The position numbers and the translations under genes are program-made. This document shows positions 13,200-45,965 of a stretch of DNA of 64,000 nucleotides, in pieces. This stretch comes from an uncultured Chthonomonadaceae bacterium. Lineage in GTDB: Bacteria; Armatimonadota; Chthonomonadetes; Chthonomonadales; Chthonomonadaceae. Where the stretch lies: positions 640,001-704,000 of the forward strand of contig CAWIEK010000049.1 in NCBI GenBank assembly GCA_963835065.1, read 5' to 3'. Positions within the stretch are counted from its first letter, which is position 1. Every line of letters begins with the position of its first letter. The notes under the pieces were generated by a model, which saw only the letters and a program-made list of their open reading frames with translations, searched no databases and had not been told where the DNA came from.

Positions 13200-14561
13200 A
13201 TGTACGTCCAATCCCTGCATTTAGAAAATATCAAAGCCTTTGATAAACTAGACATTGAATTCACACACCAAAGAGACTATGGTTCTTCTTATGCAGGTTT
13301 GAACGTATTTGTAGGCGGTAACTCATCGGGAAAATCCACTCTGCTCAAGTCTATGGCAATGGCGATTTCCGGTCCAACAGTCGCCAATCAGCAACTGATC
13401 ACGCCTGCAGGCTGGATATATAGGGGGGCCAAGCGTGGCGTAATCGAGTTAAAAGTGCATTGGGACCCTGTATACGACTCGCTACGAGGTGGAGGTAAAT
13501 CGCCTGCGGGAGATGGCTTTTCCGTTGGGTTGGCTTTCGAGACTGAGCAGGATGCTTCTGCTACCGTATTGAAGTCAAAAGATTACTACACTCCCAGACG
13601 CACGAAACTTATTTCGGCAGACCGAGGCCCGTGGAATGCAGATACGACGGGTTGGCTGCTCGGAGCTTATGGCCCTATGCGTCGTCTAACCGGTAGTTCT
13701 ACTGAAGCGCTTAGATATCAGCTAGGGCGGGGCAAACTGGCGAGTTGTGTCACACTTTTTCGGGAGGATGCTGCCCTCAGCGAAAGTGAAACTTGGCTTA
13801 AACAGGAGTATGCACGTGCACTTGAGCAGCAAAGCCAAGACCGTATTCCTTCTCCGTTCGTTGCACAGGTCCAGGCATTCCTCAACGATGGCTTGCTTCC
13901 CAAAAGTTTCCATATTGCAAAAGTTTCCGTAGATCATGTATACATGACAACACCGAACGGCGGCGACTTGCCCATGCGTGACCTGAGTGATGGCTGCCGT
14001 AGCGCGTTTGCGCTGATGCTGGACATCATACACAGCATGGCGTTAGCCTATCCCGGCAAAGTTATCTTTGAACAGGACGAACAGGGGCGCATGGTTGTCA
14101 ATAAACCGGGCGTCATTCTGATTGATGAAATCGAAGCGCACCTGCATCCCTCGTGGCAGCGTCTGATTTGCGAATGGCTGAAAACTCGCTTTCCACAGGT
14201 TCAGTTTTTCCTCACCACGCACAGCCCGCTCATTGCACAAGCCGCTGATGAAGGAGGTTTGTTTGTTCTGCCTCTGCCCGATGAGATAACTTCCAAGCGT
14301 GGTATTCGCCGCCTCAGTCCGCATGAGCAGAAGCGCATTACGCTCGGCAGTGCAGAAAAGGTGCTTCTTGGCGCTGCGTTCGGACTCAAACACACTTGGA
14401 GTCCGCGCGCGGAACGGCTTGTTGATAGTTGGGAGCGCCTCGCCGCACAGCGTGACGCCAGAGGGAGCCTGCCGCCGGAAGAGGAGAAAGAATACCAAGA
14501 GCTATCAGATCAGGTGGAAATCGTGTTCGATGACCTGCCGGAAGAAATAGTTCATGCGTAA
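13200..14561 (+). CDS. AAA/ABC-type ATPase (AAA_21, Septu PtuA-like)
   Basis: Walker A GGNSSGKST, signature LSDG, Walker B ILIDEIEAHLHP, TTHSP; coupled to an HNH gene. Confidence 0.85.
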   Translation: MYVQSLHLENIKAFDKLDIEFTHQRDYGSSYAGLNVFVGGNSSGKSTLLKSMAMAISGPTVANQQLITPAGWIYRGAKRGVIELKVHWDPVYDSLRGGGKSPAGDGFSVGLAFETEQDASATVLKSKDYYTPRRTKLISADRGPWNADTTGWLLGAYGPMRRLTGSSTEALRYQLGRGKLASCVTLFREDAALSESETWLKQEYARALEQQSQDRIPSPFVAQVQAFLNDGLLPKSFHIAKVSVDHVYMTTPNGGDLPMRDLSDGCRSAFALMLDIIHSMALAYPGKVIFEQDEQGRMVVNKPGVILIDEIEAHLHPSWQRLICEWLKTRFPQVQFFLTTHSPLIAQAADEGGLFVLPLPDEITSKRGIRRLSPHEQKRITLGSAEKVLLGAAFGLKHTWSPRAERLVDSWERLAAQRDARGSLPPEEEKEYQELSDQVEIVFDDLPEEIVHA

Positions 14562-38233: not shown

Positions 38234-38419
38234 TTACCAGCTCGACTTGGTGACGCCCGGAATCAGTCCTTTGTGCGACATTTCCCGGAAACAGATGCGG
38301 CACAATCCAAAGCGGCGGAACACGCCGCGCGAGCGTCCGCAGACGTTGCAGCGTGTATAAGCGCGCACCGCGAACTTGGGCTTGCGCTTGCACTTTTCAA
38401 TCAAGGCTTGTTTTGCCAA
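38234..38419 (-). CDS. rpsN: 30S ribosomal protein S14 type Z (61 aa, Zn ribbon)
   Basis: GAAGGAG RBS, TTG start; RC.VCGR.R...[11 protein letters not shown]...IPGVTKSSW. Confidence 0.97.
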
Positions 38420-38446
38420 TACGACACTCCTTCGATGTCTTGAAGG

Positions 38447-38570
38447 AGTAGTCAGTAGCCAGTAGTCAGTAGTCAGTAGAAAACCCATTCCTTCAAGCCA
38501 CTACTGCTATGCAAAGCGTCGAGCAGGCAGGCATTTCTACTGACTACTGACTACTGGCTACTGACTACTT
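38447..38570. repeat. Inverted heptamer-array hairpin element (AGTAGTC)n upstream of rpsN
   Basis: Arms plus core ending GGCATTTCT. Confidence 0.85.
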
Positions 38571-38647
38571 CCTCAGCCAAGAATTTGCAGGTCGAAAAAC
38601 GATCCTGCGCCGCGCTCCTTCTTGTGGTTCGCGACCGTGTTCGGTTT

Positions 38648-38684
38648 CTTTCAATCCTCATCCGGTCTTGCAGCCGGATGCAAC
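38648..38684 (-). CRISPR. Solitary 37-nt CRISPR-like repeat, different family from the array
   Basis: GTTGCATCCGGCTGCAAGACCGGATGAGGATTGAAAG: GTT start, 7-bp stem CATCCGG/CCGGATG, ATTGAAA(G) 3' handle. Confidence 0.7.
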
Positions 38685-38744
38685 GGGTTCAGGCCGTCTC
38701 ACGACGTTGCGCCACATTGCGGAGACGGCAAAAAGGGCACAGCC

Positions 38745-38774
38745 ATTGTAAGAGGCCGATGAAGTATACCACAA
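38745..38774 (-). promoter_or_regulatory. Candidate promoter(s) reading toward the solitary repeat and rpsN
   Basis: TTGTGG-18 bp-TACAAT and an overlapping extended -10 TGGTATACT. Confidence 0.45.
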
Positions 38775-38923
38775 TTCGTAGGTCTATGGATAGAGTAATC
38801 ATAATTTCCTCTCGCGTCATACTCCGCAGGTTCTTTCTATGGCGGGCGGCAAGCGCTAAATCAGGCAGGAAACAGGCGGCCTCATAAGGAAAACGGCGCA
38901 ACCTTACCCACGACAGGACGCCC

Positions 38924-39756
38924 ATGCCCAACGCTTTTTTGCTCACGCTCCGCCGCCTGAATGACGCGCCCCTGCCTGCCAACACAGGGGATGTGGTTCA
39001 CGCCGCCTTTTACGACCTGCTGGCGCGCTGCGATGCCGGCCTGACCGAACGCCTGCATGACGCCAACGTCCGCAAGCCGTTCCCGCCTGCCTATGCTGCC
39101 GACCCGCCACCCCACCCAAGCCCAACCCGAATTCCTCAATCCAAAATCGAAAATCGAAAATCGAAAATCCAGACTGTGCCCTGCGCATCACTCTGCTGGA
39201 CGAAGAATTGTTCGCGCCGTTTGTGGACGGCTTGCTGCGGCAGGCCGGGACTGCGCCGCTGCGCCTGGGAAGCGCGCGGTACGCGCTCGACACGCTGCTT
39301 ACCACGTCCGCCCTCCACCCCGCAGCCGGCAGCGCCTCCTTCGCCGATTTGTGGACAGAAACGCCGCCCGCCGACGCGCTTCCCCTGAGTTTTGTCACGC
39401 CCACCGCGTTCCGTTCCCATGACCGCGATGTTTGCTGGCCCGATTCGCGCCTGTTGTGGCAATCCTGGGCGCGCGCCTGGAACGCCCATGCTCCCCCTGC
39501 CGTTCCGCAGATTGCCGAAGACCTTTTGCTTGCAGCGGCAGATCGCATCCGCCTGGGCGCGTATCATCTCCAAACCCGCAAAGCGCGCCTGCAAGGCGTG
39601 GCGCAAACCGGATTTATCGGGGAGTGCCGATTTGAACTGGGCGATCTGACGGACGCGGAGCGTCACATTGCCCGTGTGCTGGCCGAGTTCGCCTTCTACG
39701 CCGGAACCGGCCGCAAAACGGGCATGGGGATGGGGCAAACGCGGGTGAGGGGTTAG
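38924..39756 (+). pseudogene. cas6: CRISPR-associated endoribonuclease Cas6, frameshift near 39080
   Basis: N-terminal HAAFY.L....L...LHD...KPF; C-terminal F.TPT.F, GFIG.C, FAFYAGTGRKTGMGMGQ glycine loop in another frame. Confidence 0.88.
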
Positions 39757-41415: not shown

Positions 41416-41455
41416 AAAAGACAGGATTTTGTCTTCCCGATTCCGTATTCCTGCC

Positions 41456-42613
41456 ATGCCAACGCCCCTCTTTGCGCAATTGATGCAGCCGGAAACGCTG
41501 GCGATGGCCTGGGAACAGGTGCGCCGGGGCGGAAAAACACCCGGCGTGGATGACGTGACGCTGCCGCAGTTTGAACGCCATTTAGACCGGGAACTGCCGC
41601 GCCTGGCGAGAGAAGTACGCGAGGGCGCGTACCATCCCTGGCCGTCGCTTCGCCTCAACATCCCCAAACTAAAGGGCGGCACGCGGGCTATCGGCATCCA
41701 ATGCGTACGGGATCGCGTCGTCCAGCGCGCCCTGCTCAATCTCCTGCAGCCGCGCATTGAGCCGCAGTTGGAAGCCTGCTCGTATGCGTTTCGTCCGGGC
41801 CGCTCCGTGGCGCAGGCGCTGTCCACTCTGGATGCGCTGCATCAGGGCGGGCGAAGTTGGGCGGCGCGGGGCGATATTCGCCTGTGCTTCGATAGCCTGG
41901 CGCATGACCGGCTGCAAGCGGTTTTAAGCCGCGTCGTGCCGGAAAAGGATGTGCAGGAACTGCTCAGTCGCTGGCTGCGCGCGGGCGTGGTGGATGGCGA
42001 ACAGTGGCAGGAAACCGGGGCGGGCGTGGTGCAGGGTGACGCGCTTTCGCCCCTGCTCTGCAACCTGTACCTGGATGCGTTCGATGAAACCCTGCTGCGG
42101 GCGGGGTATGCGCTGATTCGCTATGCCGATGATTTCGTGCTGCTTGCCCACTCGGAACGGGAAGCGAGGCGCGGATTGCAGGCCGCCGATACCGCCCTGA
42201 GCGCGATTGCGCTGCACAGTAACCCGGAAAAAGCTTGGGTGGGCACGTTTATACAGGGTTTCGAGTACCTGGGCGCATCGCTGGTCGGCTCGCTGATTTT
42301 GCCGCTGCACAAAGTGGAGCGTCCGGGCAAACTTCCGCGCTACACGTTCGGCTACGGCGAACGCCCGCCCGTCCGCGCGCCCAACGAGCCGCCATGTGCG
42401 CCCGTCGTGACGCCGCTGACCGCCACCCACGCGCAATTGCGCGAGGAACTGCTGCGTTTGCGCCGCGCCCGGCAGCGGGGCCGGCAATTGCCCGCTGTGG
42501 GCGCGGCCATGCTGCAGGCGTGGGAGGAAGCCGGACGCCGCCGTCCCGCCCGACGCCGAACGGGAAGGCTGGCAAAGCGTGTATCTGATATAGGAGTAGG
42601 GGTTAGGGAGTGA
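41456..42613 (+). CDS. Group II-like reverse transcriptase, CRISPR-associated
   Basis: AW..V...PGVD, IPK..GGTR.IGI..VRDRVVQRA, SYAFRPGRS, GDI..CFD, QGDALSPLLCNLYL, RYADDF, FEYLG. Confidence 0.92.
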   Translation: MPTPLFAQLMQPETLAMAWEQVRRGGKTPGVDDVTLPQFERHLDRELPRLAREVREGAYHPWPSLRLNIPKLKGGTRAIGIQCVRDRVVQRALLNLLQPRIEPQLEACSYAFRPGRSVAQALSTLDALHQGGRSWAARGDIRLCFDSLAHDRLQAVLSRVVPEKDVQELLSRWLRAGVVDGEQWQETGAGVVQGDALSPLLCNLYLDAFDETLLRAGYALIRYADDFVLLAHSEREARRGLQAADTALSAIALHSNPEKAWVGTFIQGFEYLGASLVGSLILPLHKVERPGKLPRYTFGYGERPPVRAPNEPPCAPVVTPLTATHAQLREELLRLRRARQRGRQLPAVGAAMLQAWEEAGRRRPARRRTGRLAKRVSDIGVGVRE

Positions 42614-42699
42614 TTAGGAATTAGGCGCAATCCCAATACTAACTGCCGCGCCCCAACACCTAATCCCTAATCCCTAATCCCTAATCCTTAATCCCTATG
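42590..42699. repeat. Inverted heptamer-array element (TAGGGAT / ATCCCTA) between RT and cas1
   Basis: Degenerate taggagt/taggggt/tagggag arm and (taatccc)n arm ending in the cas1 ATG. Confidence 0.75.
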
Positions 42700-43680
42700 T
42701 CAAGCCTCGTCGTCACAACTCAAGGAGCGGTACTGCGCTGCGTGGGCGGGCAGATCGTGGCGGAATAGCAGAAGCAGGCCATGCAGAAGATTCCACAAAA
42801 CCAGGTGGAGCGCATTCTGCTGCTGGGCAGCGTCGGCCTGACAACAGGCGTTCTCAACTTCGCGCTGGAAAAGCGCATCCCCGTCACGTTTTTGACGCAG
42901 GAGGGGCAGTACAAAGGACGGCTGGAATCGGGCGGGCGGCGCGACATTGCGCTGCGGCTGGCGCAGTTTCGGGGTCTGGAAGATGTGGCCTGGCGGCTGT
43001 GCCTGTCGAAAACGATTGTAAGCGCAAAGATCGAAGCGCAGCGCGGCGTCTTGCGGCGGTGCGGGCGCAATCATCCGCAACCGCCCATCACAGCCGCCAT
43101 TGCGCAGTTGAACGATAGCCTGAACCGCATTGCCGACGCGCAAACCCTGCCCGAACTGATGGGGCAGGAAGGCAGCGCCGCCCGCGCCTACTTTCACGCC
43201 CTGCCCTCCGCCCTGCGCCGTTCCCTGCCGTTTAATGGGCGCAACCGCCGCCCGCCCAAAGACCCGGTGAACGCGCTGCTGAGTTTGGGCTACGGCCTGC
43301 TCACGGCGGAAATCATCGGCGCGCTGACGGGCGCAGGTTTGGACCCGCAGATCGGCCTCTTCCACAGTTCGCGGGGGCGCATGCCGGTGCTTGCTGAAGA
43401 CGTGTTGGAGATGTTTCGCGCTCCGGTTTCGGAAGTCCGCGCTGACACCTGAAAATTTGGGCGTGATGCGGGCGGAGCATTTCGAGAAACCTGAAACGGG
43501 GGAGCTGACAAACCCTGACCACGTACTTCAAGCACTACCGCCGGCGGATGCAGACGACGTTTCGGAACCGGCAGGGACAGCCGACCAGTTTCCGGCGCGA
43601 GTTGCAGGCACAGGCAACCCACTTGCGGCGCGTGATTTTACATCAGGAACCCTACGCGCCGTTTGAATTTCAGGTAGGCG
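42697..43680 (+). pseudogene. cas1: CRISPR-associated Cas1 with in-frame TAG (42766-42768) and two 3' frameshifts
   Basis: LVVTTQGA, LMGQEGSAARAYF, FNGRNRRPPKDPVNALLSLGY, GLDPQIGLFH; the C-terminus is spread over three frames; end approximate. Confidence 0.9.
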
Positions 43681-43932: not shown

Positions 43933-45965
43933 GTTGCAACCCGACCTCTTCCCCGTAGGGGATTGAAACTGAGGATCCCAGCTCGGAGAGGCTGATGCCT
44001 TGATGCCGCTGTTGCAACCCGACCTCTTCCCCGTAGGGGATTGAAACAGAAGGTGACCGGGTTGAGGCTGTTAGCCACCAGAAACTCATTGAGTTGCAAC
44101 CCGACCTCTTCCCCGTAGGGGATTGAAACGGCGATCAGCCTTTGAAACTCTGCATGGTCTCCAGTGGTTGCAACCCGACCTCTTCCCCGTAGGGGATTGA
44201 AACGGGAGCGGTTTGGGGAGGAGGGGTTCTTCTGTGCCCTTGTTGCAACCCGACCTCTTCCCCGTAGGGGATTGAAACTCCTCAATCGAGTCGGCCTCAG
44301 CCCCGTCAATGCGGTTGCAACCCGACCTCTTCCCCGTAGGGGATTGAAACGGTAATGCGCTGCCCGGCCTCGTACTCCGGCGAAGCCTTGAGTTGCAACC
44401 CGACCTCTTCCCCGTAGGGGATTGAAACGTACTCGACCTGGACATTCGGTACGCCAAGACTCGTTGACTTCGTTGCAACCCGACCTCTTCCCCGTAGGGG
44501 ATTGAAACGATGACGTTGATCTGGTGCGGGCCGTTCAGGATGAACCGGTTGCAACCCGACCTCTTCCCCGTAGGGGATTGAAACAGGCTCCAGGGCGGTG
44601 GTGGCGATGGGTTGCATTGCCGTGGTTGCAACCCGACCTCTTCCCCGTAGGGGATTGAAACTCATGCCCCTTGGCGATGATGGGTCCGGTCGCGCACTCG
44701 TCGGTTGCAACCCGACCTCTTCCCCGTAGGGGATTGAAACAGCCTTCATACCCAGCTCACTATGTCGCATGGCACTCAGTTGCAACCCGACCTCTTCCCC
44801 GTAGGGGATTGAAACCGTTCCCAATGGTTTTGTAGAAGTAATAACGCGCCTTGTGTTGCAACCCGACCTCTTCCCCGTAGGGGATTGAAACGGCCCAGGA
44901 GAAAGGCGGTGGTAGCGGTGTCCAGGTCGAGTTGCAACCCGACCTCTTCCCCGTAGGGGATTGAAACCCGCTCGATCTCCGTGATCCTCCACATCTTGGA
45001 TATGGGGACGGTTGCAACCCGACCTCTTCCCCGTAGGGGATTGAAACAGGAGAACCACCAGCTTGTAGCTGCTACGCTCGTACTGTTGCAACCCGACCTC
45101 TTCCCCGTAGGGGATTGAAACACAGGTTCTTTCTTCACGGCTGACAGCAACGTGTCAAGTAGTTGTTGCAACCCGACCTCTTCCCCGTAGGGGATTGAAA
45201 CCCCAGCATTTCCTCCGGCACTGGAATCGATCTTTAGTGGGTTGCAACCCGACCTCTTCCCCGTAGGGGATTGAAACAATCTGCTTGTCTCTGGCTTTGG
45301 GGTCATGCTCGGGCATGAAAAGTTGCAACCCGACCTCTTCCCCGTAGGGGATTGAAACACGGCATACACCTTGGTGCGCAGTGAGGTGGGCTGAACCGAG
45401 TTGCAACCCGACCTCTTCCCCGTAGGGGATTGAAACGTTTCACGTCCTATAACAGTTAGTAGTCCGATTGTTAGGTTGCAACCCGACCTCTTCCCCGTAG
45501 GGGATTGAAACCGTAGCACCTCTTCGAAGGTGGAGCGGTCAGCCGCAGACGTGGTTGCAACCCGACCTCTTCCCCGTAGGGGATTGAAACAGGATGAACC
45601 ACCAGCTTGTAGCTGCTACGCTCGTACTGTTGCAACCCGACCTCTTCCCCGTAGGGGATTGAAACATGTTCGTTGTTGAGCGCGCTAGAGTGCCCGCAAA
45701 AGTTCAGTTTGTTGCAACCCGACCTCTTCCCCGTAGGGGATTGAAACCTTGCGTGCCTTGTGCGCTGGTGATTACTTTGAACATGGTGTTGCAACCCGAC
45801 CTCTTCCCCGTAGGGGATTGAAACCATGCTCCCAGTCTTCGGCAAGCGTCCTGTGCAGATTCGAGTTGCAACCCGACCTCTTCCCCGTAGGGGATTGAAA
45901 CTCGGACAACGAAGTTCGGTGGTGCTGGCTTTGAGGGCGCGGGAAGTTGCAACCCGACCTCTTCC
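43933..45965 (+). CRISPR. CRISPR array: 26 full repeats + 1 truncated terminal repeat, 26 spacers of 35-45 nt
   Basis: Repeat GTTGCAACCCGACCTCTTCCCCGTAGGGGATTGAAAC (37 nt, CCCC-GTA-GGGG hairpin); leader on the left, degenerate end on the right. Confidence 0.99.

Follow-up and report, generated by a model that had tools for sequence, protein, structure and literature searches.

Short intergenic hairpins such as the REP, BOX and Correia-type repeats can affect mRNA processing or stability, and solitary CRISPR repeats have previously been known from phages and from cas loci. Solitary repeat units and RNA anti-CRISPRs (Racrs) consist of a single intergenic CRISPR repeat downstream of a promoter and without adjacent cognate cas genes, with RacrIC1 representing type I-C; Racrs and viral solitary repeat units lie on phages and plasmids, and 83% of them match a host system (PMC10651486). 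CreA-type repeats depend on a matching Cascade and on a target flanked by a PAM (PMC9458426), and a systematic survey (bioRxiv 2023.03.03.530964) reports that, away from cas loci, intergenic DNA is depleted of repeat-like sequences. Ribosomal-protein leaders (r-leaders) are recognised as lineage-restricted structured motifs that lie consistently upstream of ribosomal-protein genes and show covariation (PMC7247131).

We analysed a 64,000-nt stretch (the window) of an uncultured Chthonomonadaceae genome (G000; 8.0 Mb, 92% complete), in which a solitary CRISPR repeat stands upstream of rpsN; below, C numbers are contigs of this genome, other G numbers are relatives' genomes and L numbers are extracted loci or contigs. 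Like Racrs, this repeat is solitary and downstream of a promoter (the promoter being assigned from conservation), but unlike them it is not on a mobile element, since its flanks are native leader colinear with the relative G002, and the copies found across Armatimonadota are chromosomal, lie in core-gene leaders, occur several per genome and often have no matching system that we could find. It resembles CreA/CreR in being a degenerate ectopic repeat near cas genes and differs from it in that no cognate effector, mini-array or target was found. In contrast to the depletion reported in the survey (bioRxiv 2023.03.03.530964), repeats are here dispersed away from cas loci. They share with REP, BOX and Correia elements the character of short hairpins dispersed between genes, and are set apart from them by being CRISPR-derived, low in copy and strictly oriented, with neither target duplication nor terminal inverted repeats observed. 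The leader that follows the repeat in the window resembles described r-leaders in its placement and covariation (PMC7247131), whereas it departs from known ribosomal leaders, among them the S8 site of the E. coli spc operon, in following a split between the L5 and S14 genes, in its predicted pseudoknot and in overlapping a coding 3′ end. In a search of openly accessible papers on solitary repeats, r-leaders, ectopic Cas1-Cas2 integration and Armatimonadota, we found neither element described.

The locus is read on the minus strand, where the hairpins, the 37-nt repeat, the heptamer element and rpsN listed by the first-pass annotation were all found. It begins with an extended −10 box (38763–38771), likely the promoter of rpsN-rpsH-rplF...secY by its conservation, with an identical 11 nt in G002 and on the metagenome contig L164 and a near-identical stretch in G001. 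The candidate promoter annotated earlier at 38745–38774 stands as far as this conserved box (~38763–38771) is concerned, while the hexamer near 38745–38750 varies among relatives and a consensus promoter and terminator scan of 38400–39000 returned 0 sites, missing the −10 box as well. Then follow a hairpin with an 8-bp stem (38693–38729; arms 38722–38729 and 38693–38700), whose arms are kept in G002 around a variable interior; the solitary repeat of 37 nt (38648–38684), of the type I-C (DR9-like) family, with a 7-bp stem containing one mismatch; and a 13-nt stretch (38632–38644; 16/17 with its flank) identical to the helix III region of the genome's own 5S rRNA, where L18 binds. This stretch is not family-conserved and occurs only in the flank of this genus. 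The conserved leader comprises a core (38610–38634) with a 5-bp stem P1, a 2x2 internal loop, 2 bp and a 7-nt loop; a variable hairpin P2 (38587–38608), which is the second hairpin of the first-pass annotation; and a hexamer complementary to the core loop (38578–38583), the predicted pseudoknot partner. A heptamer-repeat element (38447–38568, given without a strand) occupies the place where the family has hairpins P3/P4, and rpsN (S14; 38234–38419), the operon's first gene, has a TTG start and a Shine-Dalgarno (SD) sequence at ~38427–38432.

The divergent neighbour on the plus strand is cas6 (38924–39756, in two frames around a heptamer run), which belongs to a type III-associated locus; it is followed by a neighbouring locus with a group II-like reverse transcriptase and cas1 (41429–43452, plus strand) and by a CRISPR array (43933–45965, plus strand) whose 37-nt repeat is unlike the solitary one. 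The genome holds three cas6 paralogues of this type, of which the window copy and G000:C2:93534–94363 are frameshifted at the same heptamer run and the C63 copy, without the run, is intact. At the position of cas6, G002 has a two-repeat type III mini-array (L032, ~14180–14295) divergent from the rpsN promoter, one repeat of which is split by a 58-nt insertion.

The solitary repeat is almost certainly genuine. Its layout of a 6-nt head, 7-bp stem, 4-nt loop and 13-nt 3′ handle gives the type I-C (DR9-like) form, it scores 30.4 bits against Rfam CRISPR-DR9 (E 0.0013, short of the gathering score of 45), and it differs from the array repeat of the relative G113 at 5/37 positions (32/37 identical) and has 22/37 positions in common with the window's own array repeat. 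A degenerate pattern of the family matched once in the window and in 0/100 shuffles, the reversed pattern gave 0 matches genome-wide at up to 4 mismatches, no second copy at ≤8 substitutions was found in the 8.0-Mb genome, and no partner repeat lies near this one. The repeat was annotated at first pass as belonging to a foreign, type I-C-like family and as lying in the apparent rpsN leader, and both assignments are borne out: arrays of the same family adjoin cas5c/cas8c/cas7c operons in 4/6 relatives' array loci (G113, G215, G023 and G046), with a III-B module alongside in G257 and no recognised cas gene in the 18 kb examined around the array of G019.

An assembly error that fused a piece of CRISPR sequence with the ribosomal operon is hardly credible. 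Frameshifts in many neighbouring genes, of the sort seen in assemblies of noisy long reads, and the placement of rplE on a different contig would speak for such a join; against it, both flanks are colinear with G002 over 1.7 kb at 82%, the L5/S14 split is frequent in the family and rplE lies mid-contig with a terminator-like hairpin, and the genome has no array of this repeat available for misjoining. In addition, contigs from two runs of another study cover 38607–38799, including most of the repeat, at depths of 2 and 4.5 and with 20 substitutions and 13 gap positions that are identical in both runs; they keep the repeat mostly, with the first four bases missing and the canonical end present. 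Two further contigs bridge the repeat region with 81–83 other letters. The first-pass annotation had named a misassembly junction among the findings that would refute its reading; with colinear G002 flanks, spanning contigs and no source array we ruled this candidate out.

The first-pass annotation had suggested a crRNA-like regulator of the CreA/CreR type, in which the repeat and the 35 nt downstream would act in a type I complex to repress a promoter. The setting invites it, in that the repeat is downstream of a promoter and adjoins cas6, a type I (PGING) operon is present on C15, and the 5S rRNA gene is matched by the 12 nt that directly follow the repeat's canonical end. The genome-wide evidence, however, leaves this reading largely refuted and, in our estimate, very improbable. 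The cas operons of G000 are of types III-D, III-B and I PGING, its arrays use four other repeats and none carries the solitary repeat's sequence, so the search for an array or cas subtype with this repeat came back empty. Cas5d, Cas7c and Cas8c were not found in the 92% complete genome by family search or by tblastn with the proteins of 13 relatives, no second repeat accompanies the first, and relatives without the repeat conserve the ‘spacer’ all the same. For the 35 nt after the repeat, a target with a flanking PAM was found neither genome-wide nor in seven cas regions, where the best seed matches reached 6–9 of 10 without a fitting PAM; a TTC PAM occurred at 1/109 and 0/58 of the genome-wide seed matches. 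PAM-adjacent matches in cas promoters, a further check proposed at first pass, were likewise not found in a fitting form in those seven regions.

Cas5d matches occur in 10/42 family genomes, the Cas8c and Cas5d profiles had no match in any control genome, and I-C genes were found in none of G000, G001, G002 and G021 (for the last three, Cas5d and Cas7c were sought). At present the repeat is probably no substrate of the Cas proteins in this genome, and cleavage at the rpsN repeat cannot involve a Cas5d found in it, though a I-C locus could be missing from an assembly that is 92% complete. Enzymes other than Cas5d may process this repeat family, because G257, in which Cas5d was not found, has an array of it next to a III-B module; the C63 cas6 of G000, moreover, is intact. 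As a separate observation, III-B modules without a nearby cas6 bear an I-C-type repeat at two loci, as an array in L227 (G257) and as a single copy 14 nt before cmr1 in L230 (G137).

The roughly 40 nt regarded as spacer-like at first pass turned out not to be unique sequence: they form the 5′ half of a motif conserved throughout the family, whose 23-nt core starts 14 nt past the repeat. The core was present at 23 of 24 Chthonomonadaceae loci picked by their S8 or S14 gene and in 30/31 family genomes besides G000, and among 369 genomes outside the family it had one match, which was without the rest of the motif. It is single-copy in most genomes and lies 105–312 nt before the rpsN start. Among 67 distinct motif loci, rpsN was downstream in 59, one was at a contig end, and seven were unrelated matches without the remaining motif. 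Conservation upstream of rpsN in relatives, which the first-pass annotation had proposed to examine, is therefore that of the leader core, with the repeat itself absent in G002. The leader motif is older than the repeat, and the pseudo-spacer is thus explained by a conserved cis-acting RNA.

The secondary structure of the leader is backed by covariation at the P1 closing pair and in P2. The closing pair, which was outside the search pattern, was paired in 57/57 leaders with 4 pair types, and P2 was paired in 202 of 275 cells as against 175 ± 3.5 (maximum 187) in 2000 shuffles. P2 was counted by anchoring; its length varies by up to ~170 nt among leaders, and MAFFT misaligned it, hence RNAalifold did not predict it. 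The hexamer complementary to the loop, also outside the search pattern, occurs in 57/57 leaders; in 50 of 56 it comes no more than 45 nt downstream of the core, and in 0/56 upstream of it. The loop–hexamer helix is invariant, shows no covariation, and is proposed from complementarity only. The leader is accordingly predicted to fold as a pseudoknot. Rfam 15 gave no leader family match for the window region and 10 relatives' loci at E up to 1, and the portion of the PMC7247131 table examined holds no entry for an rpsN leader; table S1 of that paper may be relevant to the question of novelty, as may large-scale motif screens beyond Rfam. A shared-word search for rRNA mimicry directed at the operon's proteins found none beyond the 5S-like stretch confined to this genus, the core having at most 7 nt in common with the sense strands of 16S and 23S rRNA.

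Very probably, then, the leader is a structured cis-acting RNA. A ribosomal protein of the operon is its probable ligand; for S8 in particular the case is tentative, S8 being the ligand that we assume beforehand by analogy with how E. coli regulates its spc operon, and the gene for S4 lies farther downstream in the operon. The criteria of PMC7247131 make the motif an r-leader candidate, and it is likely a new ribosomal-protein leader that matches no Rfam family. That it serves instead as a riboswitch, or binds a factor other than a ribosomal protein, is rather improbable. The core overlaps the last 12–15 codons of an EF-G paralogue gene in 38/59 loci, lies after its stop codon in 7/59, and is found without that gene in the locus in 14/59; in the 38 overlapping loci the codons within the motif are invariant and upstream codons vary at third positions, an invariance set partly by the search pattern. 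Translation of this gene would unfold the core, so that the EF-G paralogue, or ribosomes terminating on its gene, might be what is sensed, and the near-invariant core with its predicted pseudoknot and the failure to find rRNA mimicry agree with such a role. However, the leader stays upstream of rpsN even where the EF-G paralogue is far away, as in the window's genome, in which ~88 kb separate the two, and the sister family has an unrelated hairpin at the same position. We therefore retain the reading of a ribosomal-protein leader. The rpsN leader is a clean candidate for a new ribosomal leader, and its overlap with a coding 3′ end, followed by separation from it, illustrates how such regulators can come about.

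Two further observations concern this region in relatives. The L5/S14 split is usual in the family and the EF-G paralogue commonly stands before rpsN; in L066, L081 and L146, where rplE immediately precedes, the L5 and S14 genes still have the leader motif between them. The conserved hairpin of the sister family (L024–L030 and L257–L262) lies directly before the rpsN SD sequence in 13/13 loci, is found in 0/24 loci of the window's family, and constitutes another r-leader candidate.

The repeat at rpsN, compared with the sequence of G002, is a lineage-specific insertion upstream of the older leader. G002 has no repeat between colinear flanks, with ~10 nt in place of 40 nt in G000. Empty orthologous sites also exist for infA-rpmJ, tuf, rsmA and gapA: the rsmA site is empty in 3/5 genomes of one genus and the gapA site in 6/6 aligned relatives (11 fetched). 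At rpsN, rsmA and gapA the repeat replaces roughly 10–25 nt without target duplication, and at infA-rpmJ and tuf the upstream flank differs too between filled and empty sites. Other copies have been kept. One before infC is retained in 3/3 genomes of a single genus, where a G-C pair has become A-U by compensatory change and the loop is altered, and 2/3 of its carriers encode Cas5d. A second I-C-family repeat in G000 (G000:C44:158476; L213:1501–1537) lies between acpP and fabF with GAGGA at the place expected of the fabF SD sequence, and in G002 only the 3′ half of this copy is kept, with GAGGA 8 nt before the ATG, so some solitary repeats appear to supply a ribosome-binding site.

Such copies are dispersed across the phylum. 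The repeat pattern matched in 22/42 family genomes and its reversed control in 0. We inspected 38 non-array loci (36 distinct sites), 35 of which had no partner repeat within 110 nt; a weak 3-mismatch match in G003, a contig-end match in G022, two type III repeats and all arrays were left out of the solitary set, and L226 turned out to be an array. Named neighbours of the family sites include tuf, infA-rpmJ, infC, guaB, ahcY, fabF, rsmA, ilvD and ssb/rpsR, and 11 solitary sites in other families add gapA, apgM, cas4 and cmr1; of these other-family sites, two are preceded by DNA that by eye resembles an array leader, so they may be arrays that have collapsed, and two seem to truncate or follow mobile genes. 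On the metagenome contig L164, a different repeat of the same family stands just after the matching −10 box of its rpsN leader. Orientation was judged only between co-directional genes, where all 17 sites (14 in the family and 3 outside) were sense (two-sided 1.5e-5 if the sites are independent, with 5/17 from the single genome G021); the remaining sites have divergent, convergent or unnamed flanks, and many of them lie, by eye, just after a −10 box of the gene to which they point. The stem was paired in 233/259 cells of the solitary copies, a value partly forced by the search pattern, and several copies are altered in the 3′ handle. In viral contigs the tight pattern had 0 matches and the loose pattern found 3 stretches. 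We are highly confident that the dispersed, sense-oriented solitary repeats are real, and it is their dispersal and strand polarity that is surprising.

Taking the window's locus together, we judge it somewhat probable from the sequence comparisons that the repeat sits between the likely rpsN promoter and a leader, predicted to be a pseudoknot, that would bind a ribosomal protein of the operon, and that the repeat is a later passenger, inert in this genome as far as type I-C activity is concerned. The division of roles, with the leader as regulator and the repeat as the later arrival, is likely. Under past I-C carriage, misdirected Cas1-Cas2 or recombination would have left single repeats that replaced short native stretches. 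Sense copies could then have persisted, as in RNA they add a stable hairpin and the SD-like GAGGA, while antisense copies would bring an anti-SD sequence. In the leader itself, an excess of ribosomal protein, most likely S8, would stabilise the fold, and the stabilised fold would lower translation of rpsN together with its coupled genes. We favour misplacement at the DNA level with retention of sense copies because the repeats have exact ends and some of the copies have been conserved or put to new use; the proposed selection for the sense strand does not obviously explain copies just past stop codons. More generally, solitary repeats are likely leftovers of CRISPR activity that cells tolerated or reused.

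The same data could be read in terms of function, with solitary repeats as mRNA processing sites that are cut by Cas5d, a Cas6 or a host RNase and selected in leaders of highly expressed genes, the site just ahead of the rpsN leader among them, where the cut would give a protected 5′-OH end or uncouple genes. The first-pass idea of a cleavage site in the rpsN leader gains indirect support from the many sense solitary repeats in gene leaders across the phylum. The sense orientation at 17/17 informative sites would suit cutting of the transcript, as would the presence in rpsN leaders, in separate lineages, of two repeats that differ from each other, the copies before tuf, gapA, infC, guaB and ahcY with their recurrence at translation genes, and the conserved infC copy, with its compensatory change and its Cas5d-encoding carriers. 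We nevertheless regard general selection for processing as unlikely. The genomes richest in solitary copies, G021 (9 copies), G002 and G001, show no Cas5d or Cas7c match, sites differ between close relatives, several copies are changed in the 3′ handle, and a related contig is without the repeat's first bases. Equally unlikely, in our assessment, is the stronger proposal that I-C repeats were set repeatedly into untranslated regions across Armatimonadota, at core genes such as rpsN, rpmJ, tuf, infC and gapA, and are cut as portable, strand-specific RNA cassettes by Cas5d, Cas6 or a host RNase, which at rpsN would free a pseudoknot leader derived from the coding end of the EF-G paralogue; if it were true, CRISPR processing would be wired into housekeeping gene expression.

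Insertion by way of RNA would make the sense orientation a product of the mechanism itself: a reverse transcriptase would switch between pre-crRNA and an abundant mRNA, the cDNA would replace a short stretch, and the copies would be neutral. The strict sense bias, the lack of target duplication, the shortness of the replaced segments, their patchy resemblance to the repeat and the many highly expressed neighbours all accord with this, and in the window a reverse transcriptase adjoins cas1. That RT-cas1 locus, however, uses another repeat, and Cas1-Cas2 nicking would better account for copies that are complete, end exactly and retain no trace of a spacer; we regard the route through RNA as improbable. 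We therefore keep to misplacement at the DNA level as the preferred origin. Either way, a scatter over leaders throughout the chromosome with strict polarity points to an unrecognised route by which CRISPR machinery would write repeats into its host's chromosome, or to selection of the repeats as RNA elements.

Several minor observations were made on repeats elsewhere. In G021, 5/9 solitary repeats (L185, L195, L051, L205 and L210) precede prepilin-type (DUF1559) genes, some of them followed by A-rich runs. Direct-repeat pairs 807 and 1825 nt apart (L049/L176 in G001 and L191/L057 in G014) enclose open reading frames in the manner of gene cassettes, and a cas3-like HD gene in L224 (G079) seems to be cut short in frame by a solitary repeat. 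A viral contig (L266) bears a solitary repeat of this family, a possible Racr candidate. In G000 itself, a degenerate solitary copy of a type III array repeat lies upstream of a promoter and small genes (G000:C37:64854; L192:1501–1537), and a palindromic REP-like element, the core of which resembles the 3′ end of CRISPR repeats, has 125 matches. Its 16S rRNA gene (G000:C51:119419–121114; L100) is 1696 nt long, with heptamer-repeat insertions in two helices, and the 23S region contains similar runs.
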